The notes below the pieces were generated by a model that ran no database searches, was not told the DNA's origin, and worked only from the letters and a program-made list of their open reading frames with translations. The position numbers and the translations under genes are program-made. A stretch of DNA of 64,000 nucleotides from Gammaproteobacteria bacterium (GTDB lineage Bacteria; Pseudomonadota; Gammaproteobacteria; SZUA-152), in the NCBI GenBank assembly GCA_011051755.1, contig DRKN01000089.1, forward strand, positions 4,917-68,916, in the 5' to 3' direction. Shown in pieces: positions 7,794 through 62,084 of this stretch; the stretch's first letter is position 1, and each line of letters begins with the position of its first letter.

Positions 7794-8525
7794 ATGGCAA
7801 TCCTCTGGCAAAAACAGGTCGGCGACACCCGTTACGAAGTGCGCACCGCCGGGCGTTCGCGACGCCTGTATTCCAATGGCGTATTCCACAGTCAGTACCA
7901 CCCGGGTCGCCCCCACGCCGGCGGCGTCTGGGATCTGCTCATGTTGCCAGCTTTTTTCCGCTCGCCCACGCGTATCAGACGCATCCTGGTGCTGGGTGTT
8001 GGTGGTGGCACGGTGATTCATCTGTTGCAACGTTTTCTGCGGCCGGAAGCAATCATCGGCGTGGAATTGAACCCTGTTCACCTACAGGTGGCGCGGCAGT
8101 TCTTCGATATCAGGAAAGACATGGCCACCCTGCACCAGGCCGATGCCGTGCAGTGGCTGAACGACTACGACGGCCCCGCCTTCGACATGATTATCGATGA
8201 CCTGTTCGGCAACGAAGACACCGGTCGCGCGGTGCCCGCCGACACGGCGTGGTGCAGCATCTTGCTGCGCAATCTCAACCGCAATGGCGTGCTGGTGATG
8301 AATTTCATCGGCGGCAAGGCCTTGCGCCACAGCGCCTGCGTCAGCGAACCGCTGATCGCCCGTCACTTCACGTCCCGCTTTCAGCTTAGTCTGCCGGCCT
8401 ACGAAAACGCCATCGGCGCCTTCCTCGGCCACCCGGCCAGCAGCCAGGGCCTGCGCAAGAATCTTGCCCGCGTGCCCGAACTCTCCAGCAAGCGCATCGA
8501 CTTTCGCATCCGGCAGATCACTTGA
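7794..8525 (+). CDS. Spermidine-synthase-like SAM-dependent methyltransferase / aminopropyltransferase family protein
   Basis: It has the VLGVGGGT glycine-rich SAM/dcSAM-binding motif and a DDLF acidic motif. 243 aa. Confidence 0.55.
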   Translation: MAILWQKQVGDTRYEVRTAGRSRRLYSNGVFHSQYHPGRPHAGGVWDLLMLPAFFRSPTRIRRILVLGVGGGTVIHLLQRFLRPEAIIGVELNPVHLQVARQFFDIRKDMATLHQADAVQWLNDYDGPAFDMIIDDLFGNEDTGRAVPADTAWCSILLRNLNRNGVLVMNFIGGKALRHSACVSEPLIARHFTSRFQLSLPAYENAIGAFLGHPASSQGLRKNLARVPELSSKRIDFRIRQIT

Positions 8526-22727: not shown

Positions 22728-23228
22728 CTACTCTATGCGCGCCTTGCGCATCATCTCTTCGCGGTCACGGCGCGGCTGGCGAGAGCCATCCTCAGCCTCC
22801 TCCCAGACTTCCTCGCGCATGAAGCGAACCACAATGGCCTTACCGGCCACCTGCCGGCGCAACTTGCGCAGCACCTCCAGCACCTTGTCCTGTTCTTCAC
22901 GTTCGATAACGCCGTAGATGGTGACCACCAGCCGCCGCGGCTGCGCCTCGCCCATCACCGCGGGGCGATCCTGAAACTTCCCCTGTACGGGAAAATCATA
23001 ACGCTCGATCAGCGTGTCGACGATCTGCTGCACGTCGCGCTGATCCTGATCCGAGGCACCCCAGTTGGAGGAAAAAGCCAGTAACAGCATCATGGAAATC
23101 GCAAAGGCCACCAGGGCATATTCACCCATGTGCGGCTTGATGCCGTGTTTGTAGCGCAGGTAGGCCCACACCAGAATACTGATGGGAAAGACCACATAAA
23201 CGAGAATAACCAGCAACGCCTGAACCAT
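22728..23228 (-). CDS. Hypothetical membrane protein (two N-terminal TM helices, charged C-terminal half)
   Basis: 166 aa. Its stop is 10 nt from the rlmC start. No recognisable family. Confidence 0.5.
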   Translation of the reverse strand: MVQALLVILVYVVFPISILVWAYLRYKHGIKPHMGEYALVAFAISMMLLLAFSSNWGASDQDQRDVQQIVDTLIERYDFPVQGKFQDRPAVMGEAQPRRLVVTIYGVIEREEQDKVLEVLRKLRRQVAGKAIVVRFMREEVWEEAEDGSRQPRRDREEMMRKARIE

Positions 23229-23628
23229 GATGCAGTACCTTGTTTAAGTCCGCGCTGAATCCGTGGATTCAGGCACGAAAAAACGTTCTATAAAAAATAC
23301 CGTAGCCGAAAAATCCCACCAACAGCAGATCACACGACAACGGCGCACTGCCACCCCATGCACCGATACAAAACCGCTGATTTCGACTCACGGCAAGACT
23401 TCCATTGTACAGGAAAAGGACGCAGGCCCGTTCATTCTGTCACGGTTGTCCCCGGGTCAGCGAAACAGCAAGATGCCAATGATGGACTGCGCGGCAAAAC
23501 CTTCGAACAGGCCGTCTGACACCTGCCGTCGAAGGTGAAAACCCGGCCACAGTGAAGAATCCCACCGCCTTGCCGCTAATGCTAGTACTCCGCCCCGACA
23601 ATATTGACGGATTTTCAAGGACTTCCGC

Positions 23629-25941
23629 ATGAAGCTGACAGACTCGACACCCGGGCACCGGGACGCCCACTGCCATTTTTCACGACTGGCCCTGCTGCTG
23701 GCAGTCTGTCTGCTGCTGGCCGGAACCCCGTCCCGGGCCGCGGACAGCATGGCCGAACCCGTCGACGACGTGCGCGTGCTGATCGATATCTCCGGCAGTA
23801 TGAAGCGCACGGATCCGCATAACCTGCGCCGCCCAGCCCTGCGCCTGTTCACCTCCCTGCTACCCAAGGGCGCCCATGCCGGCGTATGGACCTTCGGCCA
23901 GTGGACCAATATGCTGGTCAAACACGGCCAAGTAGACACCCCATGGAAAAATAATGCCCGCAAGAGCGCTGGCGGAATCAACTCACGAGGCCTGTATACC
24001 AACATCGAAGACGTCCTGCGCCGCGCCACCTGGGACTGGAAACGCCCGGACGCGGGCCACCGCCGCAGCCTGATCCTGCTCACCGATGGTCTGGTCGACA
24101 TCTCAAAGAACCCCGCTGAAGACACCGCCTCGCGCGAGCGCATTCTCAACGACGTGTTACCCCGTCTGCAACAGGCCGGCATTACCGTGCACACCATCGC
24201 CTTGTCCAGCGAATCCGATGCCCCCCTGTTGCAACAGCTGGCCGCCGCCACTGGCGGCTGGTTCGAGACCATCGAATCCGCTGACGGCCTGGAGCGCCTG
24301 TTCCTGCGCATGTTCGAAAAGGTCAGCAAGGCCGACACCCTGCCGCTGGAGGACAACAGGGTCAACATCGACAACAGCATTCACGAGGCCACTTTTTTGG
24401 TCTTCCGCAAACCCGATGCCGGTACCACCACGATCACCGCCCCCGATGGCGGCAGCTTCGACCGGCAACAACTGCCCGCCGGCGTGGAATGGTTCGAGGA
24501 CGAACGCTACGAGCTGATCACGGTGCAGAATCCGCCACCCGGTGAGTGGCGCATCAATGCCGACGTCGACCCGGACAACCGCGTCATGGTGGTCACCGAC
24601 CTGCGCATGAAAAACACCGAGCTTCCCAACGATCTCTCGGTTGGACGACCGCTGTTGTTCACTATGCAACTGGAGCAGAGGGGAAAAATCATCGATCGTC
24701 CGGACTTCCTGCAATTCGTCAAGGTCACCCTGACACAGGTTTCTGCTAACGGTGATGAATGGCAGTGGCGCCTGCGCGACGACGGCAAGCACGCCGACCT
24801 CACCGCCAACGATGGCATTTTTTCTACCCGTCTGGGTGAGTCACTCATCGAGGGCGAGCACGCGTTCATTCTCGATGTGGACGGCATCACCTTCAAACGT
24901 AACAAGCATCAGCAGGTCAAGGTCTACGGCCAACCGGTAGACGCCCACATCGAAGCGCTGGGGCACGACCGCTTCGCCCTCATTATCGTGCCCTATGTCA
25001 GCCTCATCGACCCGCACAGTATGCACATCGACATCGAACACGTACTGCCCAACGGACGCCTGGAAAAGGCTGAGGCAACGCAGGTGAGCACCGTCGAATG
25101 GCGCCTGGAATTGGATGCCAGCGGCAGCACTGGCGAACACGAACTGACTGCCCACATCCGTGGACAACGCAGTGACGGCAGTCCGGTCAATGTACAGCTC
25201 GGCCCGATCCACTTTGCGACTGGCGGCGACGCCACGCCACATGAACGCACACCCATGCGGGCACCGCAACCTGAGCAGCATGAAGCACCGGCCCACGAGC
25301 CACCCGTTGCCGAACATCAACCACCTCCCGTTCACCACGAAGCCGAACCTGCAGCCGAAAAACCGAAACTTGAGCAGCCGGTCGAAGACAGCGGCCACGC
25401 TGCCGAAGAAGACGAGCATCCGCCACAGATCGGCTGGGGCATGATCATCGGCAGCATCGTGGGTCTGACGGTATTGATCGGTGGTTTGGTGTTCGGCGGC
25501 ATCAAGCTGTGGCCGAAAATCCAGGCCATGCGTAAACGCAAAGAGGAAGGCTCCGCCAAAGAAGAAAAGAAGGAAGAGCCACCAGTGGCGGCGGCAACCG
25601 CAGCAGCGCCGGCGCCAGAAGCGGAAGAAGCGGAAGAAGCGGAACCCGACACTGGCGTACCCGACGTGGATCAGGCCATCGACGAATTACTGGGTGACAG
25701 CACGCCACAGGAAACACCCCGGGAAACAGAAACAGCCGAACTCGATCCCGAGTTGGATCTCAGCGCCGATGATGGCGAGGAACCCGCCGAGGTCAAAGAA
25801 GTCACGGAAATGGATGCCGTTGAAGAACCCCAAAAAACCGCCACACAGGAAACGGTCAGCAAAGAAGCCGAGGAAATCGCCGAAATCCCCGAAGATCTTA
25901 TCTCACTGGATGACGACAACAAGGACAACAAAAAGGCTTGA
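23629..25941 (+). CDS. Secreted/membrane-anchored von Willebrand factor A (VWA) domain protein with a C-terminal TM helix and an acidic, Pro/Glu-rich cytoplasmic tail
   Basis: 770 aa. It has a signal peptide, then the MIDAS motif LIDISGSM and the LTDG VWA blocks, then about 300 aa of beta-rich sequence. A single TM helix (GWGMIIGSIVGLTVLIGGLVFGGI) is followed by KRKEEG and a long E/P/A-rich tail. Confidence 0.75.
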   Translation: MKLTDSTPGHRDAHCHFSRLALLLAVCLLLAGTPSRAADSMAEPVDDVRVLIDISGSMKRTDPHNLRRPALRLFTSLLPKGAHAGVWTFGQWTNMLVKHGQVDTPWKNNARKSAGGINSRGLYTNIEDVLRRATWDWKRPDAGHRRSLILLTDGLVDISKNPAEDTASRERILNDVLPRLQQAGITVHTIALSSESDAPLLQQLAAATGGWFETIESADGLERLFLRMFEKVSKADTLPLEDNRVNIDNSIHEATFLVFRKPDAGTTTITAPDGGSFDRQQLPAGVEWFEDERYELITVQNPPPGEWRINADVDPDNRVMVVTDLRMKNTELPNDLSVGRPLLFTMQLEQRGKIIDRPDFLQFVKVTLTQVSANGDEWQWRLRDDGKHADLTANDGIFSTRLGESLIEGEHAFILDVDGITFKRNKHQQVKVYGQPVDAHIEALGHDRFALIIVPYVSLIDPHSMHIDIEHVLPNGRLEKAEATQVSTVEWRLELDASGSTGEHELTAHIRGQRSDGSPVNVQLGPIHFATGGDATPHERTPMRAPQPEQHEAPAHEPPVAEHQPPPVHHEAEPAAEKPKLEQPVEDSGHAAEEDEHPPQIGWGMIIGSIVGLTVLIGGLVFGGIKLWPKIQAMRKRKEEGSAKEEKKEEPPVAAATAAAPAPEAEEAEEAEPDTGVPDVDQAIDELLGDSTPQETPRETETAELDPELDLSADDGEEPAEVKEVTEMDAVEEPQKTATQETVSKEAEEIAEIPEDLISLDDDNKDNKKA

Positions 25942-26050
25942 TCAGGCCTTTATTTGTAGGATCGGCTAATACCCAAAGGGCACGATGAGCCGTTCCCACA
26001 AATGACACACAGATGAAATTCAAGCAATCACACCGCACTAAACCAACACC

Positions 26051-27688
26051 ATGAAAGCACCCAAGCTATGGAGTCTGCAAAGCAAATCCATTCTGGTCGT
26101 GGATGACTTCCCCGGCATGCGCTCCATGATGCGTGGCATGCTGTCGGCCTATGGCGCCGATGACATCACCGACACCAGCAATGGCGAAGAGGCCATCAAG
26201 CGCATGCATGACAAAAGCTTTGACATCGTGCTCTGTGATTATAATCTTGGCGAAGGCAAGGATGGTCAGCAGGTGCTGGAAGAGGCCAAGGAAGACAACC
26301 TGCTACCCTACTCGTCCATCTTCATCATGACGACGGCGGAAAACAGCATGGAAATGGTCATGGGCGCGGCCGAATATCAGCCGGACGACTACCTCTCCAA
26401 ACCCTTCACCAAGCAGGTGTTGCAGACACGCCTCAAGCGCCTGCTGGCGCGCAAATCCAGTCTGCGAAAAATTGCCAGCGCCATGCAAAAAAAGGATTAC
26501 AGCCACGCCCTCAGTCTGTGCAAAAAACAGCTCGCACTACAGCCCGGCAACCGCTTCGAACTGCTCAGGCTCAAGGGTGAGCTGTCTATCAAGGCACAGC
26601 ACTTCGATGCCGCCGCCGCCGCCTTCGCCGAGGTCATGGCCGAACGCGAACTGCCCTGGGCCAAGCTCGGTTACGGCGAGGCCTTGTATCATCGCGAACG
26701 CTACGAAGAGGCCAAGAGCACCTTTAAGGAACTCATCAAGAGCAACCCCAACTACGTCTTCGCCCATGACTGGCTGGCCCGGGTCTACAAAAAGCTGAAT
26801 GAACCGGAAATGGCTCAGGAGATCCTCACCGAAGCCACGGAAAAATCGCCCAAAGCGGTACTGCGTCAGCGCGCGCTGGCCGAGATATCGTATCAGAACG
26901 AAGATCTGGATAGCGCCGAAGAAGCTTACCGGCGCGTGATGCGGCTGGGGAAAAACTCCTGCTATAAAAGCCCCACCGATTATGCCTCGCTCAGCCGTGT
27001 TTATCTGCAGAAAGGCAACAATGCCGAGGCCGTGAAGACCCTGGCATCGATGAAAAAGGAATTCCAGCGCGGCAAATCCGGCGACCGTCTGCATGCCGTC
27101 ATTCTGGAAATCATGCTCTACAAGGACATGGCGCGAGAAGACGAGGCACGTAAGGGCATCAGCGAGGCCATGAAACTGTTCCGCAACAACCCCGGCGGGC
27201 TCAACACTCAGCTGGCGATGGATCTTGCCAGTGCCTGCTACGGTTTAGGACTGAAAGAAGAAGGCGACGAAATCGTGCGCCATATCGTGCGCAATAACCA
27301 CGAAGATCAGGCCATCCTCGATGGCGTGCAAAGCATGATGGAAGACTGCGGGATTGGCGACTCGGCCGCAGATCTCATCGCCGCCACCCGCGATGAAGTC
27401 ATCGCCCTCAACAACCGCGGCGTGGAAATGGCCACTAACGGCGCCCTGCAAGACTCCATCAAGCTGTTCGCCCAGGCCGCAGACGGCATGCCGGAAAATC
27501 TGGTCATCAACCTCAATGCCGCACAGTCACTGATCATGTTCATGCAGCGCTACGGCGCGGTGCCGGAATTTCTTGAACAAACCCAGGCTTACCTGGTGCG
27601 CGCCCAGTCGCTCAACAAACCCAGCCAGAAACAGGACAAACTGCAAACCGCCTACCGCAAGTTGGTCACTTCACTGGCCAAGGCATGA
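26051..27688 (+). CDS. Response regulator: CheY-like receiver fused to TPR repeats, with no DNA-binding or enzymatic output
   Basis: The receiver has ILVVDDF, the phospho-acceptor D in IVLCDYNL, and the T and K motifs. It is followed by about 400 aa of TPR-like helical repeats. Confidence 0.8.
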   Translation: MKAPKLWSLQSKSILVVDDFPGMRSMMRGMLSAYGADDITDTSNGEEAIKRMHDKSFDIVLCDYNLGEGKDGQQVLEEAKEDNLLPYSSIFIMTTAENSMEMVMGAAEYQPDDYLSKPFTKQVLQTRLKRLLARKSSLRKIASAMQKKDYSHALSLCKKQLALQPGNRFELLRLKGELSIKAQHFDAAAAAFAEVMAERELPWAKLGYGEALYHRERYEEAKSTFKELIKSNPNYVFAHDWLARVYKKLNEPEMAQEILTEATEKSPKAVLRQRALAEISYQNEDLDSAEEAYRRVMRLGKNSCYKSPTDYASLSRVYLQKGNNAEAVKTLASMKKEFQRGKSGDRLHAVILEIMLYKDMAREDEARKGISEAMKLFRNNPGGLNTQLAMDLASACYGLGLKEEGDEIVRHIVRNNHEDQAILDGVQSMMEDCGIGDSAADLIAATRDEVIALNNRGVEMATNGALQDSIKLFAQAADGMPENLVINLNAAQSLIMFMQRYGAVPEFLEQTQAYLVRAQSLNKPSQKQDKLQTAYRKLVTSLAKA

Positions 27689-27701
27689 GACGGATAAAGT
27701 C

Positions 27702-28394
27702 ATGAGCAACAATGCGCAAAAACTGGATTTCGCCACCGTGATCGCCAGCGCCGTTCACGACATGAAAAACTCCCTTACCCTGCTACTGGACACGCTGGAT
27801 GACACCGCCAGCGAGCAAAGCATTGCAGCAACCCCCTTGCAGGAAAAGCTACTGCAAGCTCAACATGAAGGGAAAAGGCTCAACCGAAATCTCATCCAGC
27901 TACTAGCACTCTATCGCCTGGAGCGTCGCCAGCTATTCATCAATATCACCGAGAACGGTGTTGCCGAACTACTCGAAGATGTCGCCATGGAAAACCAGCA
28001 ACTGCTGGATGCCAGAAATATAAAACTGGAAATAGATTGTGAAAGAGGACTCATCGGATTTTTTGATCGTGAGCTTATTAGCGGAATCGTTAATACCATC
28101 ATCAACAATTCCTACCGCTACACCAAAAACACCATACGCCTCAGTGGAAAAAATCAAGGCCGCTATCTGTGCATTCATATAGAGGATAATGGCCCTGGCT
28201 ACCCGGAAAAAATGCTACACGGTGAAAGTAACACGGACTCACCCATCGACTTCCAAACCGGCAGCACTGGTCTTGGCCTCTATTTCGCTGCGCAGATCGC
28301 TCGAATGCACAGTAATAGTGAATGTCATGGCTATACCGAAACCAGCAACGATGGCATCAACAAGGGTGGCAAATTCAGTCTGTTCTTACCCTGA
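27702..28394 (+). CDS. Soluble, sensor-less histidine kinase (HisKA-like H-box + HATPase_c)
   Basis: The start MSNNAQKLDFATVIASAVHDMKNSL is 13 nt after the receiver-TPR stop. It has the N-box IINNSYRYT and the G-boxes DNGPGY and GSTGLGL. About 230 aa with no TM or sensor domain. Confidence 0.75.
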   Translation: MSNNAQKLDFATVIASAVHDMKNSLTLLLDTLDDTASEQSIAATPLQEKLLQAQHEGKRLNRNLIQLLALYRLERRQLFINITENGVAELLEDVAMENQQLLDARNIKLEIDCERGLIGFFDRELISGIVNTIINNSYRYTKNTIRLSGKNQGRYLCIHIEDNGPGYPEKMLHGESNTDSPIDFQTGSTGLGLYFAAQIARMHSNSECHGYTETSNDGINKGGKFSLFLP

Positions 28395-28666: not shown

Positions 28667-28727
28667 GCGGTTGACTGTAATGATATAGTTACTTCATTTG
28701 TCTAAAACCCCTAACCGGAGAAAACGA

Positions 28728-29441
28728 ATGGAATTGCCAAATTTAAGGCGCGAAATCAGATACGGAATGCCTGCCGCAGATCAAGTCATATTCAATAGAC
28801 ATTACGTGCTGGGTTATTCGTACTATTTTCGCCAAGCAAAATGGGCTTTGGAAATTGTAGATCCTGACAATATTCGCTTGGATCGCGCAGATAACTTTCG
28901 ACCGGATTACCGAATACCCGAGAATTTTCGGGCTGACCTCGTTGATTATTCCGGCTCTGATTATGACCGCGGCCATCTCGTGGCAAGCGCCAACCAAAGA
29001 GAAACAAAATTACAAAACAGTGAAACATTTCTTTTATCCAATACGTCGCCACAAAGACCCCAATTCAACAGAGATATATGGGGTAAATTGGAAGCTGAAA
29101 TCAGAAATCTGAATGCCAAACCAAAAATACTGGAAACGTATGTCATTTGCGGCCCTATTTTCTATTTTGACAAGCCAGTCGAATGCATAGGAAGCAACGA
29201 TTCCAACAAGGTAAAAATTCCGGTGCCTCATGCCTATTTTAAGTCTGTCTTGACCGAGAATAACAGAGGAACCCTCCACATGTGGTCATTCATACTGGCG
29301 AACGAGGAATCCAACCAGGCACTGGATACATTTGCAGTACCAACGACATTGGTTGAAAAATTAGCCGGCATCAATTTATGGGAAAGTTTGGTAGGAAGAA
29401 AAATTGACCGGGAAAAATCAAGAGTCCGCAAAATGTGGTGA
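28728..29441 (+). CDS. DNA/RNA non-specific endonuclease (Endonuclease_NS / EndoG-NucA family), no signal peptide
   Basis: The beta-beta-alpha-metal catalytic motif DRGHLVASANQ is present. The start MELPNLRR has a GGAG RBS. 237 aa in markedly AT-rich local DNA. Confidence 0.75.
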   Translation: MELPNLRREIRYGMPAADQVIFNRHYVLGYSYYFRQAKWALEIVDPDNIRLDRADNFRPDYRIPENFRADLVDYSGSDYDRGHLVASANQRETKLQNSETFLLSNTSPQRPQFNRDIWGKLEAEIRNLNAKPKILETYVICGPIFYFDKPVECIGSNDSNKVKIPVPHAYFKSVLTENNRGTLHMWSFILANEESNQALDTFAVPTTLVEKLAGINLWESLVGRKIDREKSRVRKMW

Positions 29442-29699: not shown

Positions 29700-30896
29700 C
29701 TAACGTCGTGATTCAATAACTTCACGTATCTCATCGTCGGTTAACACGATGGGGTTGGTGCGCATACTGCCACTGCGACAACCGGCAACGATGCTGTCCA
29801 CGTCCGATGCCCGGACACCATAGTGACCCAGGCGCGGAAGCGCCATTCGTTGGATCCATTCATGGAGTCTCGTGATCAACGCCGCCCATGCCTGCGGGTC
29901 GGTTAATTCTGCACCCGGATTCAACAAACGACCAAGCTGCGCATATTTTTCCAGCGCCGGACTGTCCGGCTGGCGTTGGCGCAGGCTGCGGATATTGCGC
30001 TCAGTGGCGGCTGCAACCAAGGTGCCACAGACAACGCCGTGGGGAATAGGAAAATAGGCACCGAGTGGCGACGCCAAACCATGTACGGACCCCAAGCCCA
30101 CCTGTGCCAGGGTAATGCCGGAGATGAGCGCGCCATAAGCTATGCCGGCACGTCCTTGCCTGGCCGCCGCACCATCCCCCCCTTCCCAGGCCGCCAAAAA
30201 ATGCTGGGTCATCGCTTGCAGACCACTCCATGCCAAGGCGTCCGTTAGCGGGTTTGCACGACACGACAGATACGATTCCAACAACTGGGTGAAAGCATCC
30301 ATGCCATTGGCGGCGATCAGCGCGGGTGGACAGGAGGCCAGCAATAACGGATCGACAACGGCAACCTCGGCCACCAGATCGGGATGACGAAACGATTTTT
30401 TAAAGCCATCACGCCCTTGCTCACTAAGCACCGCATTCATGGTGGCTTCACTGCCAGTACCGGCAGTAGTGGGTACCGCAATGAAAGGCACGGCAGGCCC
30501 CGCATAACTGAGACCCTGACCAACACCTTCCAGATAATCCATGACCGAATTCCCTTTTGGCAAGAGTCCGGCAATGGCCTTGGCCGCATCCAACACACTG
30601 CCACCACCAATTCCCAGAACGATATCAATACCTTTTTGGTAAAACTCCGCCACAATCCGATCCACCTGCTGTGGCGATGGCTCCCCGTCGACGATGACAT
30701 CGCTCCACTGCAATCCTGCCGCCGTCAGTGCATCCCGAAGCGGCGGCCAGTAGGGCGTGGCGCGAAAAGAGGAGGCTCCGGTCACCAATAACATCTGCCG
30801 ACCATAGGTGGCCACCAGGGCTGGTAGTTGCGTGTGGCTGTTTTCAGCAAAAATAATCCGTGGCAGACGGACGGTGGAAAATGCGGGTATCTCCAT
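29700..30896 (-). CDS. Iron-containing (group III) alcohol dehydrogenase
   Basis: The start MEIPAFSTV is at 30894-30896. It has GIGGGSVLDAAKA and the Fe-ADH His cluster. The track ORF has a long N-terminal over-extension. Confidence 0.8.
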   Translation of the reverse strand: MEIPAFSTVRLPRIIFAENSHTQLPALVATYGRQMLLVTGASSFRATPYWPPLRDALTAAGLQWSDVIVDGEPSPQQVDRIVAEFYQKGIDIVLGIGGGSVLDAAKAIAGLLPKGNSVMDYLEGVGQGLSYAGPAVPFIAVPTTAGTGSEATMNAVLSEQGRDGFKKSFRHPDLVAEVAVVDPLLLASCPPALIAANGMDAFTQLLESYLSCRANPLTDALAWSGLQAMTQHFLAAWEGGDGAAARQGRAGIAYGALISGITLAQVGLGSVHGLASPLGAYFPIPHGVVCGTLVAAATERNIRSLRQRQPDSPALEKYAQLGRLLNPGAELTDPQAWAALITRLHEWIQRMALPRLGHYGVRASDVDSIVAGCRSGSMRTNPIVLTDDEIREVIESRR

Positions 30897-30900
30897 CGAC

Positions 30901-31197
30901 TCAGTACTCTGGATACAGGCCGATGTAGCGTACCCCCTGGCGCGGCGATGCCATCCAATCGGCAACAGCCTCCCGCCATGCCAGGTAGTGCGCGGTCTTT
31001 TTATGCGCGGCGGCAGCATCGGCATCACGATAGGCTTCGTAAAGGATGAACTGGCCGGGGGAATCCACCATTTGTAATACATCAAAGCGTAAATTTCCGG
31101 ACTCCTGCACAGAGGCTTCATGATTCAAGCGTGTTGCCGCAATAAAATCATCAATGTGCTCGGCTTTGACGTTGACCTTGACCAGCGTTGTATGCAT
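30901..31197 (-). CDS. ABM-family (antibiotic biosynthesis monooxygenase / YgiN-like) small monooxygenase
   Basis: 98 aa in the ferredoxin-like ABM fold pattern. It is 4 nt upstream of the ADH gene. Confidence 0.6.
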   Translation of the reverse strand: MHTTLVKVNVKAEHIDDFIAATRLNHEASVQESGNLRFDVLQMVDSPGQFILYEAYRDADAAAAHKKTAHYLAWREAVADWMASPRQGVRYIGLYPEY

Positions 31198-31257
31198 GGC
31201 ACGTTCTCCTATTCTTTACTGCGCTATCGGTCGATACCATTTCAATGTGCATGCCCC

Positions 31258-32919
31258 TTAACTGTCAAGCAATGGACAGTCCACGGGTAACAGTACCGTG
31301 AATGTCGATCCGACGTTCACGGTCGACGTGGCCATCAGGCGGCCACCCATTAATTCACAATAACTGCGGCTGATCGTCAAACCGAGACCGGTGCCCCCAT
31401 AACGCCGGGTGGTACTGGTATCCGCCTGGGAAAAAGGCTGAAAAATATGCTCCAGACGGTCAGCGGGAATGCCAATCCCGGTATCTCGAACCTCGAATGC
31501 GAATTGATCCCCATCCTCGTCTGTATGACGTAAAACAACATGAATATCAATCACGCCGGCAGTCGTAAACTTAGTGGCATTCGAGACGAGATTCAGGAGT
31601 ACTTGATGTAAACGCTCTCTATCGGCCCATACGCTATCCTGGGATACCTTACGTGTCACGCGCAACGTATTACCACGCTGCTCAACCGCAGGCGCAATTG
31701 TCACGCGGACTTCTTCCAGCAAGCTATCCAAATCGACCCAGGTCATATTCATGTCAATGCGTTCAGCCTCGATTTTGGACAAATCAAGGACATCGTCGAT
31801 GAGTGATAGCAATTGCGTGGCGGCCAGCAATATTCGCTTGAGATCGCTGACCATCTCCATGTTTTCATACGCTTGCGCATCCTCGGAGAGTAATTCTGCA
31901 TAGCCAATAATGGCATTCAACGGGGTGCGTAGCTCATGACTCATGTTGGCGAGAAAACTGGATTTAGCGCGATTCTCTGACAATGCCGTATCACGTGCAA
32001 TCACCAGTTCGGCATTCATGTCTTGCAAGGCCTGTTCGGCAAACACCCAGCGGGTGACATCGGCAATCACCAATAGCCGATCATCGCCTGCGGTCTCCAT
32101 TAAGGTGACCTCATGGGTGAAACGGTTGCCCAGCGGACTGACATCACCGATGCGCACCGTATTGCCAAGCTCCAATCGGCTGCAATAATGTGACCACCAG
32201 GCATCTGGCGTCCCCCAGTCCGCGAGAATCTCATGCAGCGTGCAGCCGAGGGGAACCAGGTCTGCCGATAGCACATAACCAACACCGGCCCCCACACTAC
32301 CCAAGGCACGTTCAAGAAGGTCGCGGTGAGCCGCAATCGCGGTCGCCGCCTGGTTTTGCTGCTCGCTTTCAAGCCGTAGCTGAAAACCCTGAATAGAGAG
32401 CAGGGCGGCCGATACCATCGGCACAATACGCTGTGCAGTGCGGGTATGGCGGGCGGTAAAAAAACCTTTCTCGGCATGGCCACAAATCAGTACGGCAACA
32501 CTCTCTCCGGCAAAAATAGGAATGTGCAACGCCGAACGAATGCGGCCGAGCAAGGCGGGCGATTGCGCCGCCCAGGCAGGTTGTTTCGAGGTATCAAAGA
32601 CCGCCACAGATTTGCCACGCAGCACTCGTTGTAGCGCGGGGTCGATACATAACTGAACCCCAGAAAGAAGGTGGTCTTCTGCGGCCATTGATACCAATAC
32701 ACTATCGTCAACCAAAAACAGGGCGGCAACATCAAAGTGCAGCAATGGGCCCAGTACATCGACAAGTACCGCATAAACAGCTTCAGGGTCTCGTGCAGTT
32801 GCCAGGAGGGCAACCCCCGCAAGCAGTAAATCACCTTCCTTGCGTCTGGCGCGCTCGTGCTCAAGCTGCACCTGAAGCTCGACCAAACTCTCCCGCAGCT
32901 CTTCATTCACTTGCTTCAT
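31258..32919 (-). CDS. Cytoplasmic sensor histidine kinase with GAF-type sensory region
   Basis: The H-box is SHELRTPLNAIIGYAELL, with the N-box LVSNATKF and the G-boxes DTGIGI and GGTGLGL. There are no TM helices. It starts 4 nt after the FIST gene stop. Confidence 0.8.
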   Translation of the reverse strand: MKQVNEELRESLVELQVQLEHERARRKEGDLLLAGVALLATARDPEAVYAVLVDVLGPLLHFDVAALFLVDDSVLVSMAAEDHLLSGVQLCIDPALQRVLRGKSVAVFDTSKQPAWAAQSPALLGRIRSALHIPIFAGESVAVLICGHAEKGFFTARHTRTAQRIVPMVSAALLSIQGFQLRLESEQQNQAATAIAAHRDLLERALGSVGAGVGYVLSADLVPLGCTLHEILADWGTPDAWWSHYCSRLELGNTVRIGDVSPLGNRFTHEVTLMETAGDDRLLVIADVTRWVFAEQALQDMNAELVIARDTALSENRAKSSFLANMSHELRTPLNAIIGYAELLSEDAQAYENMEMVSDLKRILLAATQLLSLIDDVLDLSKIEAERIDMNMTWVDLDSLLEEVRVTIAPAVEQRGNTLRVTRKVSQDSVWADRERLHQVLLNLVSNATKFTTAGVIDIHVVLRHTDEDGDQFAFEVRDTGIGIPADRLEHIFQPFSQADTSTTRRYGGTGLGLTISRSYCELMGGRLMATSTVNVGSTFTVLLPVDCPLLDS

Positions 32920-32922
32920 GTG

Positions 32923-34131
32923 CTACACGGGAGTATTGCCTAGCAACAGTACTGAAATCATCAGATTTCCGTGGCGATTTTCACCACCGATAAAGCAACC
33001 CTGTTCGCCAAAGGTGAACGAGCCCAGAAAGGGACGCCCTTCCAGGGCATCATTAAGATGCCCGACCACGTTATCCATCTGATCCTGGACGGTTAACATA
33101 CAGCCGGCACAGTAAATCACCAAACCACCGGCGATATCACCGGGTGCCACATCACCGGTTCGCATCGCCGCCCGAGCCACTCGCCCCGCCCGCTCGATCA
33201 AGCTGTCCCGCGTCCCTTTCATCAACCAAAATTCGTCGCCCACCGCAACATCTGCAAATAAGCTCAGGCCACGTTCCGGGGTAATCTGATCCGGGTGGGA
33301 TAGTTGGTGATAAGCGGTACCACCGACACTGCCCACCACCCGACCCAGCGGGTATAACGTTGTCAGTGGCAACACATTTTGCTCACCGCTCGCAAACGCA
33401 TCCTGGAGTACGCCACCGGTCCAGTCATTGTAAACCTCTGCCGCCGGACGCCCATCGATCTCATACAGAATACGGCCATCAGCACGTGTCACACGCCCTT
33501 TTATTTCTGTCGGCTCATAACCACTGTGAAACGCAAAACAGAGTTCGGTCGACGGAAACAGCACCGAGACGACAATCGCATCGCGGTACACACCGACCTG
33601 AGTCAGTTGAGCCCATTGACCACTCACATCGTTGTCGGCAGAGCTACCGCCGACAATCGGCACACCCGCCCCGAGCGAGGTCTCAATCTCACTAATCACT
33701 CTTTCCTCACAACCAGGGGGGGCACTGATCCATATCAGGTCGGGTACTTCGCCGGGCCGTCCGGCATCATTGAGCGCAGCATCCAGCGCTTGGCAAGTAG
33801 CGGCTTCCGGTGATGCCGCCGCATCCAGCGTTGCCTCGCCAACACCATAATGTCCATCCGGATCGACAATACCGAAGGCGGCAATACCCCGTCCCTCGGC
33901 ATTGACCACACCCCGCTCGGTCATTGCGCCAAGACAAGAAGTACTTCCATGAAAACGCTTGGCTCCGTGGTTAATCAGCGTTTGCTGTAATTGAGAAATA
34001 TCGTAACTGACGGATGGCGCAACAATGATCCAATCAGGGGAACCACCCAGTCGGGCTGAGAGCTGTTCCCAAAGTTGATCTGCGGCTTCTTTGGAAGAGT
34101 CAAGAATTGAGTCTGCGGTTGCAACATGCAT
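32923..34131 (-). CDS. FIST (N+C) sensory-domain protein
   Basis: The start MHVATADS is at 34129-34131 with an AGGAGAA RBS. About 400 aa with the FIST_N/FIST_C pattern. It lies directly upstream of, and likely cotranscribed with, the GAF kinase. Confidence 0.65.
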   Translation of the reverse strand: MHVATADSILDSSKEAADQLWEQLSARLGGSPDWIIVAPSVSYDISQLQQTLINHGAKRFHGSTSCLGAMTERGVVNAEGRGIAAFGIVDPDGHYGVGEATLDAAASPEAATCQALDAALNDAGRPGEVPDLIWISAPPGCEERVISEIETSLGAGVPIVGGSSADNDVSGQWAQLTQVGVYRDAIVVSVLFPSTELCFAFHSGYEPTEIKGRVTRADGRILYEIDGRPAAEVYNDWTGGVLQDAFASGEQNVLPLTTLYPLGRVVGSVGGTAYHQLSHPDQITPERGLSLFADVAVGDEFWLMKGTRDSLIERAGRVARAAMRTGDVAPGDIAGGLVIYCAGCMLTVQDQMDNVVGHLNDALEGRPFLGSFTFGEQGCFIGGENRHGNLMISVLLLGNTPV

Positions 34132-34721
34132 GCTGTTCTCCTTTGTTACAGCAATACGACCTGAAACATACCTCTTTCCGGTCACTGGGAGGTTGTTAAC
34201 AATCATTTTGACAACCCCTGAGGGTCATCCGGCACCAGCAGTCAGCCTAAAACAATCCATTGTAGAGCGCAAATAACCGGATCACCCACTAACCGCCTTC
34301 CATATTGTCGGACTGTTGCAGGAAATTTTAACACCGCCATGGAACAAACAAAGCGTGTAATAACACCTGAATTTTCATCGTTTTGGGGCGATGCCGCCGG
34401 GTCAGCCGGCCTGACCACCATTGCGACAAGGCCACCCCTTCATTGATGTCCACAAAACCGGGGAAAAAAACGGATCGGCACGATAGCGGAAAGTTCTGTC
34501 GATCAGACCGGATGGGCAAGCGCACGCCGATCCGGGTACCGGATCAGAGACAGGGTTCAAGGAGATCAGGCTGGCCAGCGGTCGTACAAGAAGCCAAACC
34601 TGGAATCCTTATGCCATTACCCACCATCTCCATTTTTGTATGGCGGCAACAATACTTATATCGATAAATTTTATGCTTTCTGATATTGAAAAACGCATCA
34701 CTCAAGCAACCTCGGATGTAT

Positions 34722-57902: not shown

Positions 57903-58684
57903 TGCACGCTCAACCCGAGCCTCTTTGCATGCAGGCAAAGCTACCGCGTCCTGCTCTCGCCCCTCGCCTAAGAGCGCCTACTTTTGGTGCCTGCGTCCAT
58001 GCAGGCAATAAAGCCAGTGAGATTATGCATGACTTCATGCAATATCCAGTCTAACCATGAACGACAAACACCACAGATGCGGCCAGCCTTGTATGCGCTG
58101 GAAGCGACTAAAAGCCACACTATTTTCAATGACCAAGTCAATCAATGGGTTAAAAAAATCATCTTACGTCCAACAGGCTCCTAAACAAACATGGATTCAG
58201 CAATGTTTGACTTGAGCCATAATGAGCGATGGCTTACAGTTAGCACCATCGAACCAGGACTGTGAGGGTGCATCATGCTTGTTAAACTATTGATTTACAA
58301 TTTGTTTCAATACGGTGGCCCTGCGTAGAAATTCCCGAGTGAAAATACCTGGCGGATTCTTGACTTTTTTCCTCTTTGCATTCCTCGCCCCAAAACCTGC
58401 TTTGACGGGAAAAATCAAGGGGGAAATGGCCGAAGTAATGAACTTTTTGGTTTTTTGACAGACTATTTCCATTGCATGTTCAATGGTATTGATAATGAAT
58501 GTAGTATGTCGTCATAGGAAATATTGACGACATATTTTCTAAAAAGTTTTTATCCGGGCAGCAGCACCCGCTTAAGAACGAAACAAAACAACCAAGGCCA
58601 ATCGACGATTGCCGACGGTTATACCAGCCCCGCCGCCACATCGCGGGAAACACCACCCATTTGAGACCAACGAAGAGAATACCT

Positions 58685-59047
58685 ATGAAACCTATCATGC
58701 TCGCCATCACCCTGTGCCTGTCCGCCCTGATCACCACCGGCGCCATGGCCGCCGCCACCAAGACCGTTGAAGCCGTCAATAAAGAGTTCACCAGCCTGAA
58801 AGGTCAGCAAGTCACCGTCAGCGGCAAAGTTGTAAAAGTGAACAACGGTATCATGCGCCGCAACTTCATCCACATTCAGGATGGCACCGGCGGCCAAAAC
58901 AGCAACAACCTGATCGTCACCAGCAAGCAGACCGCCAAGGTTGGCGACCAGGTCACCATCACCGGCACCGTAGCGCTGGATACCGACTTCGGTATGGGCT
59001 ACATGTATCCCCTGCTGGTCGAACAGGCCACGATTCAGCCCCGCTGA
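58685..59047 (+). CDS. Small secreted protein, possibly a BOF/YgiW-like OB-fold protein
   Basis: Signal peptide MKPIMLAITLCLSALITTGAMA. The mature region is about 100 aa with the (V/I)TVSGKVVKV beta-strand pattern reminiscent of YgiW. The family call is weak. Confidence 0.45.
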   Translation: MKPIMLAITLCLSALITTGAMAAATKTVEAVNKEFTSLKGQQVTVSGKVVKVNNGIMRRNFIHIQDGTGGQNSNNLIVTSKQTAKVGDQVTITGTVALDTDFGMGYMYPLLVEQATIQPR

Positions 59048-59130
59048 GCAAACACCTGAAACACAAAAGGCCGGCTGGGCTTCCCCGGCTGGCCTTTTAA
59101 ATGCCTCTAAACGACTTTCAGCTTCCTGAC

Positions 59131-59196
59131 GTAGAGTGGGCACCGCCCACCAGTTACGTTCTATCCAAGCAGCGATAGTGGGCAGCGCCGCCCTAC
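59131..59196. repeat. REPIN, family B doublet
   Basis: gtagagtgggcaccgcccacc ... tagtgggcagcgccgccctac. Confidence 0.75.
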
Positions 59197-59287
59197 ATAT
59201 TTAATTTTGTGACCACATACGCCCTGTTTAAAGACATATTTCCTATGTGGTGCCATTGACTATGCATGGGCTGTTAGGCTTCAAACC

Positions 59288-59941
59288 TCACCCCGCCGCC
59301 CTACCGGGCTGACAGTATTTGCGCTTGTAGCCCACCAAGCCAAGAAGGCCGATACCCATCATCAGGATGGAGGAAGGCTCGGCGACGGGAACCGTGCTAT
59401 TTAATTCAATTCGCAGGGTATCCCAATAGATATCTGCACCCATAACGCCATTCATCCCGCCGCTGTATTGTTGATCCAGCCCAGCGAGCAATACGTTAAC
59501 CTCAAAATTTGTGGTAGGCCCCGTATTGCCGAAATCATAGCTAACGGATCCACCGGAATACGGATTGACGGACCACGTCAATGCCCCGGCAGTGCCACTA
59601 AAAGGCGGCAGTGCAGGAATCAAGTAAACACCCGAGGTAAAGCTGGTGTCCGGCAGATCAAAATCCGAGATCGTATCGCCATTGAAATCCATCCAGAACC
59701 CGTCCAGGCTGAAGCTTATCGTGTATTCCCCCGGCACAAAAAGGCTCAGGTTTTCATCAATATTCCCGGAAGTACCCGTAAAGCTGAATGTGGCAGGATT
59801 GTTTATCCCTAAACCTACAGCATAATTAACTTCACCAATACCTGTTACGTTTGTTGCCTCATAATAAATTGACGTCGCCATTGCAGACCCGCCAAAACAC
59901 AAAAATGCAGCACAAGCAGTGGTCGTTATGAGCTTTTTCAT
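59288..59941 (-). CDS. PEP-CTERM sorting-domain secreted protein
   Basis: Signal peptide MKKLITTTACAAFLCFGGSAMA. The C-terminal tag is VPVAEPSSILMMGIGLLGLVGYKRK, a PEP-like motif plus TM helix plus basic cluster, which is the exosortase recognition signal. Confidence 0.75.
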   Translation of the reverse strand: MKKLITTTACAAFLCFGGSAMATSIYYEATNVTGIGEVNYAVGLGINNPATFSFTGTSGNIDENLSLFVPGEYTISFSLDGFWMDFNGDTISDFDLPDTSFTSGVYLIPALPPFSGTAGALTWSVNPYSGGSVSYDFGNTGPTTNFEVNVLLAGLDQQYSGGMNGVMGADIYWDTLRIELNSTVPVAEPSSILMMGIGLLGLVGYKRKYCQPGRAAG

Positions 59942-60180
59942 TCGTCTACCTCTTTAGCAGCCTGTTAAATCGCCGTATTTATTACTTACCGGCACACGCA
60001 ATAACCTTAAGCAAACAGGGTGCCACCCACAACAACCACTTGAAATGAAAGGGAACCATACAGTGCAAACCAGTTGGAACCCCGATCACTGTAAAAAATA
60101 CCGACAGCCCCATAAAATCGCCGTTTCGATTCAGTTCGCTACAGAGTGATAGAATTTACAAAGGAAGTGTTTATCCCTAT

Positions 60181-60228
60181 TGCGCGCACAGCACACACCT
60201 GCCCGTAGCGTGTGCCATGCGCACGATG
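60181..60228. repeat. REP family C doublet
   Basis: tgcgcgcacagcacacac ... cgtagcgtgtgccatgcgcacgat. Confidence 0.7.
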
Positions 60229-60516
60229 CCCCCAGGATCAGGAAATCATTGAAACTACGAAATTTCGAACCGGACTCTGACGACTCCCCACAAAAAACCT
60301 GGTGGGGTGGGCAGGTTTTTCATGCCCGGGTGGAATATGCGTCAACGACTAAATTTCGGACCGAGTCCGGAGACCCAAAACACTTCGCGGGGCAAACCCT
60401 AACGAGAGAGGCTGCCTGAATTTATGTCCCAAACACCTTCAATCATGCTGCACACTTTGCAAACAGAGTATTCAAAATACGGTAAAAATCTGTTAATGGC
60501 ACAACAATAACCATGG

Positions 60517-60882
60517 CTACTGACTCAGATTCACCGCAATTCCGACAAAATCCTCAACGTTCTTTTTCTCAACATCCTCAATGATATAAATCTTTATATG
60601 CCGCCTTTTTTTACCCTTGCCTTCCAGCACCTTATCGGGATCTGGGAATTCAGCGCCAAAACTGAATTCAATGGAAATGTGTTTCGCATAAACGAAAATA
60701 CCGCCTATCAAGGTATTGGAAAGGATAAACACCAAGCCACCATATTTTATATCTTCAACTAAACCCGAATTGGTATTGTGAAATATCGTTCTTATCGATA
60801 TAAGAATTTCAAACATTTCCGGTGATTGATATTGAATGTCGTTTAAAAAACTATCAACTTTATCATTATTCGAAAAATTCAT
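60517..60882 (-). CDS. DUF1801 (YdhG-like) domain protein
   Basis: 121 aa. It follows the DUF1801 pattern (...KYGGLVF...IGGIFVYAKHISIEFSFGAEFPDPDKVLEGKGKKRRHIKI...). The region has very low GC. Confidence 0.55.
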   Translation of the reverse strand: MNFSNNDKVDSFLNDIQYQSPEMFEILISIRTIFHNTNSGLVEDIKYGGLVFILSNTLIGGIFVYAKHISIEFSFGAEFPDPDKVLEGKGKKRRHIKIYIIEDVEKKNVEDFVGIAVNLSQ

Positions 60883-61094
60883 CTCAGTTACTCACTTAGC
60901 AATCTTTCTTAAAAAAACGTCTCTCATTACCTGTAGTACATCGCTCAGGCTCAGTGATAGTAATGCCCAGTATTCAAACATCGTAGAGCAGCATACCTCA
61001 CACCAGACCACCATATTTACTAGCGATCACAGGGTCATATCTTAGCGCATAATGTCATACGATCATTAATAAACATAGATCTCCAACATTATAA

Positions 61095-61349
61095 TTATGG
61101 CATCAGCAACCGAAAATTGGCCACCGCTACTGAAATGCCATTTACCACAACTTCCACTGCCTGCATTCCTGGATAGAACACGCGAGCAGTGATTTTTCTA
61201 CGTTCTTTACTTGCGCCTTTCATCCACTGCTCTGCTATTCCAATCACAGCATCAGAATGATCTTTAGCAATATCATTTAGGTTATTTGCAACCGAACGTC
61301 GGACATATTCTTTATCATCATCTTTGAGCCGTTCCAGTAGATCGATCAC
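61095..61349 (-). pseudogene. C-terminal fragment of an AlkD-like (HEAT-repeat) DNA alkylation repair glycosylase
   Basis: ...KEYVRRSVANNLNDIAKDHSDAVIGIAEQWMKGASKERRKI matches the conserved C-terminal block of DNA alkylation repair proteins (PF08713). Only about 80 codons are in frame. Upstream sequence is in other frames and is interrupted. Confidence 0.55.
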
Positions 61350-61580
61350 TGGAGAAGTGATTTTTGATATACATCGGCAATCTCATCGCCCAAGGCAATC
61401 CTGACCGACGTCCTTCCGAAACCAATCGCCGTACGTGTTGATTGTTATCAGTAGTCCAGGTTTTCAACACCGATAATGTTTTTTAAAGACTGGGGGAGAT
61501 GCTCTACTTCATTGCATCGCGGTTGACATCCTCAAAAAAGCTGTGCTACCGGGCTACAGATTCTGCTGAGAAGCCAAATA

Positions 61581-62084
61581 TTATTTATTATTGATGCTCA
61601 GCATTGAGTAAAGAACATTTGACAGGCGCTTTATTTTTTCAATTAATTCTTCATGCCCTTTTTGATGGATTTTTGTTTCTGGACTGGACATTACTTCTTC
61701 CACAAATCTTTTTTGTGTGTTTTGGTAATCTTCGTGATCAGGAAATAGTTCACGGATTTTTTCAAGTTCTTCGGCATCCAGCCATATACCGCCACACTGA
61801 GGACATTCATCAATCTCGATCTGGAATTTACTGCTATAGAAACGGCGCATCATTATTACATCTGTATCACGCGGGCAATTCAGCCTTTTGTTCACATCGA
61901 CTAAAGGGTTGTGATATTCTCTTAGGTGTTCAATTAAAACTTCCCCCATAGCAATGGATGATTGATTAAGTTTATCTAGCTCAAAATTATCGAACCATAT
62001 CCCCCCACATCCTTCTGAAATATCCAGATCTATTCCGGCTACTTTTATTGGTTTAAGCAATTTCCTAGTCCTCGGACACTTCAT
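61581..62084 (-). CDS. Protein with two tandem zf-TFIIB-type zinc ribbons (CPxC...C.GCGGIWFD; CPRD...CPQCGGIWLD)
   Basis: 167 aa. Two copies of the CxxC-x(n)-CxxCGGIW(F/L)D motif are characteristic of PF13453 zinc ribbons. AT-rich context. Confidence 0.55.
   Translation of the reverse strand: MKCPRTRKLLKPIKVAGIDLDISEGCGGIWFDNFELDKLNQSSIAMGEVLIEHLREYHNPLVDVNKRLNCPRDTDVIMMRRFYSSKFQIEIDECPQCGGIWLDAEELEKIRELFPDHEDYQNTQKRFVEEVMSSPETKIHQKGHEELIEKIKRLSNVLYSMLSINNK

Follow-up and report, generated by a model that had tools for sequence, protein, structure and literature searches.

The window analysed here, a stretch of 64,000 nucleotides from a gammaproteobacterial assembly (GCA_011051755.1, contig DRKN01000089.1), contains three co-directional genes on its + strand, delimited by a scan of open reading frames (ORFs). 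They encode a membrane receptor with a periplasmic VWA domain, a response regulator in which a CheY-like receiver is followed by TPR repeats (hereafter REC-TPR), and a sensor-less histidine kinase. A membrane receptor with a conserved tail, encoded next to a CheY-TPR protein and a kinase, suggests a new envelope-to-cytoplasm signalling unit. We read the locus as a composite unit linking the cell envelope to the cytoplasm, in which the cytoplasmic tail of the receptor would dock REC-TPR. This reading, drawn from sequence comparisons, is plausible, if somewhat short of probable.

Response regulators with TPR repeats as their only output and kinases devoid of a sensor are common in genomes and largely unexplained. 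The locus offers the REC-TPR/kinase pair a concrete candidate partner, namely a tail some 100 residues long that bears three short motifs, and it provides a functional handle on a widespread and unstudied family of periplasmic VWA receptors.

Two gene pairs and the tail that accompanies their association

Gene neighbourhoods were compared in two sets, one of 80 loci around relatives of the VWA protein in species-representative genomes (VWA-centred) and one of 80 metagenome loci around relatives of REC-TPR (REC-TPR-centred). Two separable pairs emerge. The first consists of the VWA receptor gene and, directly downstream and often overlapping it, a gene for a small partner protein (53 of about 76 VWA loci). 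This partner, of 200-570 aa, has an N-terminal transmembrane (TM) helix, a cytoplasmic helical domain with an E-x-x-F-Y-x-x-L signature and a long acidic tail; it gave no match to a known family. In the second pair, the small kinase gene lies directly downstream of REC-TPR (62 of 63 loci). Where the pairs come together, the genes run VWA, small TM/tail protein, REC-TPR, kinase; neighbours overlap or stand 10-30 nt apart. REC-TPR and the kinase are found downstream of the VWA gene in 7 of the 60 informative VWA-centred loci, and a VWA gene lies upstream of REC-TPR in 14 of 41 informative loci, which are the closest relatives of the window REC-TPR. The first-pass annotation of this DNA, made from its letters only, had seen a self-contained three-gene unit; the locus instead joins two independent, widespread gene pairs that usually occur apart. 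The co-localisation of the three genes that it suggested looking for in other genomes does exist, in the same order and tightly packed, in one clade and in a distant pair.

The joined order with separate VWA and tail genes occurs in L008, L009, L017, L028, L083, L093-L104 and L167. In a neighbour-joining tree of REC-TPR, the VWA-linked members group in one clade, in which one nested loss (L109) is seen and the identity of the VWA proteins falls to about 40%. The same four-gene order is also found in a distant second pair of loci, L107 and L110, with VWA proteins only 24-28% identical. In the VWA relatives of these two loci (L107:3800-5698 and L110:3912-5666), the residues of the metal-ion-dependent adhesion site (MIDAS) are degenerate or lost; if these proteins still function with REC-TPR and the kinase, metal-dependent ligand binding would not be essential for coupling. 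All the carriers of the joined form that we found are uncultured. Taken at the level of gene order, the link of VWA and tail with REC-TPR and kinase is supported.

The small protein of the joined loci is about 230 aa long and its tail carries three motifs (Table 1). Its N-terminal TM helix and helical domain are homologous in linked and unlinked partners (hhalign probability 99.6%, E 1.3e-24), which leaves the tail as the part that varies with the presence of the two-component pair. In the VWA-centred set, each REC-TPR-linked locus scored has the complete trio of motifs; the 53 unjoined partner proteins have none. Among the REC-TPR-centred loci, at least two motifs occur in one frame in all VWA-linked loci but three (L093, L098, L115), and none of the loci devoid of a VWA gene shows two or more motifs together. 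The tails of the three exceptional loci were missed by our strict patterns; they contain recognisable, more divergent versions, such as FDDAINDLL and DADTVIDELL. Between the motifs, the sequence varies freely in length and content. Conserved motifs within freely varying disordered sequence are the usual signature of short linear motifs. The tail thus behaves as a functional element, its three motifs being conserved and tracking the linkage with REC-TPR and the kinase. A search of 5.8 billion proteins with a tail profile, which is short and biased and hence weak at that size, was aimed at tails on other receptors and returned one further protein, in the same four-gene context. How freely this spacer can change is seen in the tail protein of one locus (L102:6184-6969, + strand), where motifs 1 and 2 lie on either side of a perfect (Val-Asp)n expansion, about 17 copies long.

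In the window itself, the VWA protein has about 140 extra C-terminal residues, with the three motifs in the order of the partner tail. VWA relatives outside the window subclade end 15-30 aa past the TM helix. No separate partner gene was found in the 64-kb window by tblastn or by hidden Markov model search. The presence of the motifs in the VWA tail, together with this lack of a partner gene, indicates that the window subclade (VWA identity of at least 66%; fused form in L001-L005, L087, L088, L090 and L092) results from a gene fusion. The fusion, in effect a natural deletion, kept the motif-bearing tail and dropped the TM helix and the helical domain of the partner, with REC-TPR and the kinase still alongside. 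The first-pass annotation had taken the long tail as a native part of the VWA protein; its counterpart in relatives is the tail of a small TM protein with a gene of its own, located between VWA and REC-TPR. Split and fused forms both occur naturally and offer ready-made constructs for work in vitro. That annotation had also singled out a 9-bp tandem repeat, gaagcggaa x3, at about 25621-25647. The repeat exists, 3 nt away from this location (25618-25644), and we discarded it as a notable feature: it is ordinary low-complexity coding sequence, absent or different in the tails of relatives.

Unlinked partners bear C-terminal motifs of their own: SWEDAFEESGD in Kangiellaceae, LEDEWAKLLEEE in Sedimenticola-type symbionts and EIDDLL in L020, L021 and L046 (loci showing such tail motifs: L020, L021, L046, L068, L079, L047 and L051). 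This suggests that the partner family may present different docking tails in different lineages. In a broader reading, which we regard as unlikely, the family would be a modular "tail-presenting" adaptor joining VWA receptors to different cytoplasmic clients according to lineage. These long acidic tails with conserved motifs (SWEDAFEE, and EIDDLL in the three loci cited) would also fit a general acidic localisation hub in the manner of HubP or FimV, with REC-TPR as one client among several, or motifs that serve a chaperone, a protease adaptor or the like. However, the specific set of three motifs tracks adjacency to REC-TPR and the kinase, and the fused subclade contains no other conserved candidate client gene, so that we consider such a hub very unlikely.

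A CheY-like receiver, a minimal kinase and a candidate docking peptide

The second protein was described in the first-pass annotation as a CheY-like receiver fused only to TPR repeats, and both Pfam and the AlphaFold model agree: Response_reg matches aa 14-128 with 68.9 bits, and many TPR families match aa 140-350. The closest solved relatives of the receiver are CheY proteins (E ~1e-20). The acidic pocket, the phospho-accepting Asp and the conserved Thr and Lys of two-component receivers are all present (D18, D19, D63, T95 and K117). In an ungapped alignment, T87, I95, Y106, K109 and K119 of CheY correspond to T95, V103, Y114, K117 and R127, which are invariant in alignment A2, and T95, Y114 and K117 are at least 90% conserved in a set of 78 sequences. 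The protein is not a chemotaxis CheY: it scores 59 bits against 189 for the equivalog NF007901, no che or fli genes lie nearby, and it is 545 aa long with TPR repeats. The alpha4-beta5 segment (aa 95-118, TAEN..M.MGA..P.DDY..KP) shows the strongest conservation of the whole REC-TPR family. It also includes the only part of the model with a predicted local distance difference test score (pLDDT) below 50 (aa 97-118, window 26339-26404), where no canonical helix is modelled. It may be a switch segment, or a segment that needs a partner to fold.

The top Foldseek matches of the TPR region are the TPR superhelix of OGT. That superhelix binds extended peptides through an Asn ladder. The last TPR repeats of REC-TPR contain a universally conserved Asn cluster (N454, N455, N483, N487 and N489; aa 454-489, window 27410-27517), which by analogy recalls this ladder.

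The disordered N-terminus of FliM, LSQXEIDALL, is the binding site of phosphorylated CheY, CheY-P (PMC6700473, PMC9126983). The core of motif 1 is AIDELL in the window, AIDALL in L008 and L094, and VIDELL or VMDELL in other relatives, with four or five of six residues matching EIDALL. The pattern [AEV][IM]D[AED]LL has 27 matches in 510,071 residues of neighbourhood proteins, 22 of them in these tails. Moreover, motif 1 (aa 680-687) is the sole helix predicted by AlphaFold in the tail. The likeness to the CheY/FliM-N pair covers a CheY-like receiver with its Thr, Tyr and Lys switch residues conserved, and a disordered segment with [A/E]ID[A/E]LL, modelled as a short helix, in a partner located at the membrane. 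The differences are that no flagellar or chemotaxis genes lie beside the locus, that the receiver is here fused to 13 TPR repeats, and that the motif sits in the C-terminal tail of a periplasmic receptor, whereas in FliM it sits at the N-terminus of a rotor protein. This likeness would point first to the CheY-like receiver, rather than to the TPR repeats favoured in the first-pass annotation, as the site bound by motif 1.

In the mechanism that we propose, the tail would be a docking platform for REC-TPR. Motif 1, as an EIDALL-like amphipathic helix, would bind the receiver on its alpha4-beta5-alpha5 face, in the way FliM-N engages CheY-P, and the DPxxDLS and/or EIAEIPxDL motifs would occupy the TPR groove. 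The small kinase would set the phosphorylation of the receiver and thereby control its recruitment to, or release from, the membrane receptor, and a ligand at the periplasmic MIDAS could alter the availability of the tail. The output would be protein recruitment through the TPR repeats, not transcription. Such docking fits with motif 1 being the only helix of the tail, with the rarity of this motif and with the CheY-like nature of the receiver. Should the receiver indeed bind the EIDALL-like motif, CheY-type peptide docking would reach beyond motility.

Several observations weigh against this docking. The likeness to EIDALL spans six residues only, and with pLDDT so low in the alpha4-beta5 segment, the docking face may depart from the canonical one of CheY. 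REC-TPR is most conserved at the surfaces of the beta3-alpha3 loop, alpha4-beta5 and the last TPR repeats, and this conservation is family-wide, including in members without VWA; the residues specific to the VWA-linked clade amount to 17 scattered positions, with no cluster and no clade-specific binding surface. Furthermore, 53 of the 60 informative VWA loci have no REC-TPR/kinase pair, and most REC-TPR/kinase pairs occur without VWA. In one locus (L006), the 5 kb downstream of a fused, motif-bearing tail contain no REC-TPR, and this is the sole tail found to lack the adjacent pair; another locus (L109) retains REC-TPR, the kinase and the flanking genes, the VWA and tail protein having been lost.

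The main rival explanation is simple adjacency of independent modules. The VWA protein and its tail would be a structural or adhesive element of the envelope, REC-TPR and the kinase would be a cytoplasmic two-component system unrelated to it, and adjacency would reflect shared ancestry within one clade rather than function. That each pair is common without the other, that L006 and L109 show the two to be separable, and that the conserved REC-TPR surfaces are family-wide and not clade-specific all speak in its favour. However, all linked loci with a tail-bearing protein have the three-motif tail, as against 0 of 53 unlinked partners, L006 being the sole stray. In addition, the gene order recurs in two distant REC-TPR lineages, the short distance from the tail gene to REC-TPR (10-30 nt) points to a single operon, and the fusion retains exactly the motifs. 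We therefore consider independence rather unlikely.

The kinase reduces to a dimerisation and histidine phosphotransfer (DHp) domain and a catalytic and ATP-binding (CA) domain, without any TM segment or sensor domain. Domain and sequence analyses thus agree with the soluble histidine kinase without a sensory domain of the first-pass annotation. It has the boxes of a two-component kinase: H-box SAVH19DMKNSL, N-box NNSYRY, G1 DNGPG and G2 GSTGLG, with a DxxN phosphatase-type motif following the phospho-accepting His19. HATPase_c matches with 37.7 bits and NCBIfam kinase models align over nearly the entire protein, H-box included (aa 13-231); Pfam HisKA gives no match. Phosphotransfer from the kinase to the receiver is suggested by the adjacency of their genes in 62 of 63 loci. 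In several joined loci, the operon has large hybrid kinases on its flanks, which could be the true input of the receiver there; in the window, no such kinase adjoins the module.

That the kinase lacks any input domain and is so regularly paired with REC-TPR makes it conceivable that the tail, or the helical domain of the partner, regulates the kinase. A ligand bound in the periplasm would switch it between kinase and phosphatase, and REC-TPR would act elsewhere; this is close to what the first-pass annotation proposed. Membrane accessory proteins that control kinases are well known, and two-component systems that depend on them ("three-component" systems) are established. The locus shares with them an input-less kinase encoded beside membrane proteins able to give input; it differs in that the pair mostly occurs without the membrane protein, that the output is a TPR scaffold and that the proposed coupling relies on short linear motifs. 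The linkage and motif data fit control of the kinase as well as they fit docking of REC-TPR. However, the minimal kinase accompanies REC-TPR in many lineages without VWA or tail, so that such an input is not generally needed, motif 1 resembles a receiver-binding and not a kinase-binding peptide, and the large flanking hybrid kinases of several linked loci could supply the input. Control of the kinase by the tail therefore seems distinctly unlikely.

The VWA receptor and the systems it resembles

The first protein was modelled with AlphaFold on 14 relatives. The VWA fold spans aa 45-232, and Pfam PF00092 matches aa 47-212 with 34.1 bits, above the cut-off of 23.8. The five MIDAS residues (D53, S55, S57, T124 and D153), invariant in alignment A1 of the 14 relatives, likewise place it in the VWA family. 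Foldseek matches of this domain are generic VWA proteins (4fx5, ANTXR2, integrin, CLCA1 and BatB). The beta-sandwich domains that follow are homologous to choice-of-anchor X (choice_anch_X, 32.6 bits). A single TM helix is indicated by a hydropathy maximum at aa 604-623, by an AlphaFold helix at aa 603-646 and by W603, invariant among relatives. The Lys/Arg cluster KLWPKIQAMRKRK that follows this helix indicates a cytoplasmic C-terminus. By sequence and comparison, the VWA protein is thus a bitopic inner-membrane receptor, with a metal-binding VWA domain and three Ig-like domains held in the periplasm by a flexible linker and the tail in the cytoplasm. The same layout (VWA/MIDAS and beta-rich periplasmic domains, one TM helix and a Glu/Pro/Ala-rich cytoplasmic tail) had been drawn in the first-pass annotation, and it is borne out by Pfam and the AlphaFold model.

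The VWA protein has more than 1100 homologues in our search, with at least 590 matching stretches in species-representative genomes, where carriers of the family are sulfur-oxidising, symbiotic and marine Gammaproteobacteria. The NCBIfam model TIGR03503, which excludes the VWA domain, aligns end to end with the beta-sandwich, linker and TM part of the protein (aa 237-612, E 4.9e-45), at 154.1 bits against a curated cut-off of 305.6. Ten relatives were scored as well and, with the window protein, they range from 114 to 181 bits, all below 305.6. By sequence, the VWA protein is therefore best placed in an uncharacterised sister group of TIGR03503, homologous to this family and not a member of it by the NCBI criterion, although many relatives are labelled "TIGR03503 family" by JGI. 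We found no paper mentioning TIGR03503, a family without known function.

The first-pass annotation had kept in reserve that the VWA protein might belong to a known family such as TadG or BatB. It is indeed of a catalogued kind, that related to TIGR03503, uncharacterised and below the cut-off; its neighbours do not make it TadG or BatB. For TadG, no pilus genes were found among the neighbours in the window or in 80 related loci. For BatA/BatB (Bacteroides aerotolerance, Bat/MoxR), the likeness is a membrane-anchored VWA protein and a TPR protein in one operon, with BatB (3ibs) among the fold matches. The window VWA protein differs by its signal peptide, large periplasmic part and C-terminal TM helix, and its TPR neighbour is a response regulator. 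In addition, no MoxR ATPase or DUF58 gene was found within about 8 kb on either side, the range scanned for MoxR.

In overall layout, the window receptor resembles integrin, ANTXR2/CMG2 and CLCA: outside the cytoplasm, a VWA domain with MIDAS precedes Ig/FN3-like domains, a single TM helix comes next, and the cytoplasmic tail bears docking motifs, here putative. This likeness rests on Foldseek and weak profile matches, at 9-24% identity; it concerns architecture and does not amount to a demonstration that the whole proteins share an ancestor. The window receptor also differs from them in being a bacterial inner-membrane protein that is linked with a His-Asp system. By analogy, the unit would resemble a two-component system with a membrane accessory receptor, a look-alike of a CheY-type docking peptide and an integrin/ANTXR-like layout. 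It might even be a bacterial counterpart of integrin-style outside-in signalling, in which the tail of a MIDAS receptor recruits a phosphorylation-switched CheY-TPR adaptor through its EIDALL-like motif and the two other motifs, and a flagellar-type docking peptide is re-used outside motility to connect sensing at the envelope with the formation of a protein complex in the cytoplasm, a broader proposal that we regard as unlikely.

Among papers combining VWA, TPR, receiver and histidine kinase, none describes such a system in its title or the opening of its abstract, and no paper was found for "REC-TPR". The arrangement thus seems, from these titles and abstract openings, to be without description in the searchable literature.

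Feature coordinates and surroundings of the locus

Table 1. Coordinates, in the 64-kb window, of the genes, domains, motifs and spacer of the VWA/REC-TPR/kinase locus.
Feature	Position	Strand	Details
VWA receptor gene	23629..25941	+	770 aa; ORF, homologues, AlphaFold model
Signal peptide	23629..23739	+	aa 1-37; hydrophobic core LALLLAVCLLLAG; AlphaFold helix 15-31; putative cleavage SRA|AD, by eye
VWA domain	23761..24324	+	complete MIDAS D53-x-S55-x-S57, T124, D153; Pfam PF00092
Three beta-sandwich (Ig/FN3-like) periplasmic domains	24334..25221	+	aa 236-531; pLDDT ~90
Pro/Glu/His-rich disordered periplasmic linker	25228..25428	+	aa 534-600; pLDDT <50; length and sequence vary among relatives
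Single TM helix	25435..25509	+	aa 603-627; followed by a positive cluster
Acidic disordered cytoplasmic tail	25525..25938	+	aa 633-770, 138 aa; 22% Glu, 15% Ala, 11% Asp; net charge -32; tail peptides VPDVDQAIDELLGD, AELDPELDLSADD, EEIAEIPEDLISLD
9-bp tandem repeat gaagcggaa x3	25618..25644	+	encodes EAEEAEEAE; low-complexity spacer
Tail motif 1, VDQAIDELL	25666..25692	+	aa 680-688; consensus VDxAIDELL; resembles FliM-N EIDALL
Tail motif 2, DPELDLS	25744..25764	+	aa 706-712; consensus DPxxDLS; P36, D39, L40 invariant in alignment A3
Tail motif 3, EIAEIPEDLI	25873..25902	+	aa 749-758; consensus EIAEIPxDL; E81, P83, L86 invariant in alignment A3
Spacer between VWA and REC-TPR genes	25942..26050	+	109 nt; inverted repeat GGAtCGGCT...AGCCGtTCC
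REC-TPR response regulator gene	26051..27688	+	545 aa; ORF, Pfam, AlphaFold model (pLDDT 88.6)
CheY-like receiver domain	26087..26455	+	aa 13-135; D18, D19, D63, T95, Y114, K117
About 13 TPR-like helical repeats, superhelix	26465..27682	+	aa 139-544; AlphaFold pLDDT 88.6
Soluble histidine kinase gene	27702..28394	+	230 aa; DHp with His19 (nt 27756-27758), then CA domain

An identical copy of the 770-aa VWA protein is called on two public contigs, and the sequence of the window matches a contig from a hydrothermal-vent metagenome. The longest ORF of the kinase is 27573-28394; its actual start is the ATG at 27702, since public gene calls agree on it and the preceding codon is not a start codon. 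The gap of 13 nt given in the first-pass annotation between REC-TPR (stop at 27688) and the kinase is exact; that between the VWA gene and REC-TPR is 109 nt, not 13. A 307-aa ORF on the opposite strand (23457-24380) was discarded as a shadow of the VWA gene.

In the spacer between the VWA and REC-TPR genes, the ~70 nt that immediately precede the start codon of REC-TPR are kept in the fused subclade, with no obvious Shine-Dalgarno sequence (CCAACACCATG). The inverted repeat of the window spacer sits upstream of this conserved part, and another GC-rich hairpin is found at the corresponding place in L004, L087 and L090. Between the genes, we found no clear terminator or sigma-70 promoter, consensus-scan sites being no more numerous than in shuffled sequence, and a search for structured RNAs or riboswitches in the spacers gave no Rfam match at or above the gathering score in the whole window. 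An anti-phage defence system was also considered and rejected: PADLOC gave no meaningful match for any of the proteins.

Within about 8 kb, genes for an RlmD-like methyltransferase, CTP synthase, KdsA and enolase lie on one side of the locus, and those for Endonuclease_NS, an iron-type alcohol dehydrogenase (Fe-ADH), a GAF kinase and a FIST protein on the other. Divergently upstream of the VWA gene, a 166-aa protein without family match is encoded on the minus strand (22728-23228); its position is kept across the fused subclade (83-100% identity; L003-L005, L007, L032 and L087) and it is absent in more distant loci. After the kinase, a DNA/RNA non-specific endonuclease (Endonuclease_NS, E 1.6e-42) is encoded at 28698-29441 (+) in a low-G+C patch (0.476 vs ~0.58), a position kept only in the closest relatives (L003 and L004).

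Just downstream of the three genes, a second signalling cluster occupies the minus strand (29700-34206). It encodes a FIST-domain protein (32923-34206), a GAF-HisKA-HATPase kinase (31258-32919), a small ABM-domain protein and the iron-type alcohol dehydrogenase, which shows a sub-threshold likeness to the regulatory protein ErcA (155 vs 550 bits). This layout recalls NosP/NahK and ErcS/ErcA-type loci. The GAF kinase was considered as a syntenic counterpart of the hybrid kinases that flank the operon in relatives and discarded, only the generic kinase core being alike (39% over 258 aa).

Elsewhere in the window, the only tRNA is a tRNA-Ile (GAT) on the minus strand (8053-8145), with 93 nt unusually long for a bacterial tRNA-Ile; no Rfam family reaches its gathering score at this site. 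Finally, positions 58001-62000 have a G+C content of 0.41-0.49, against a background of 0.55-0.62, and may be foreign DNA.

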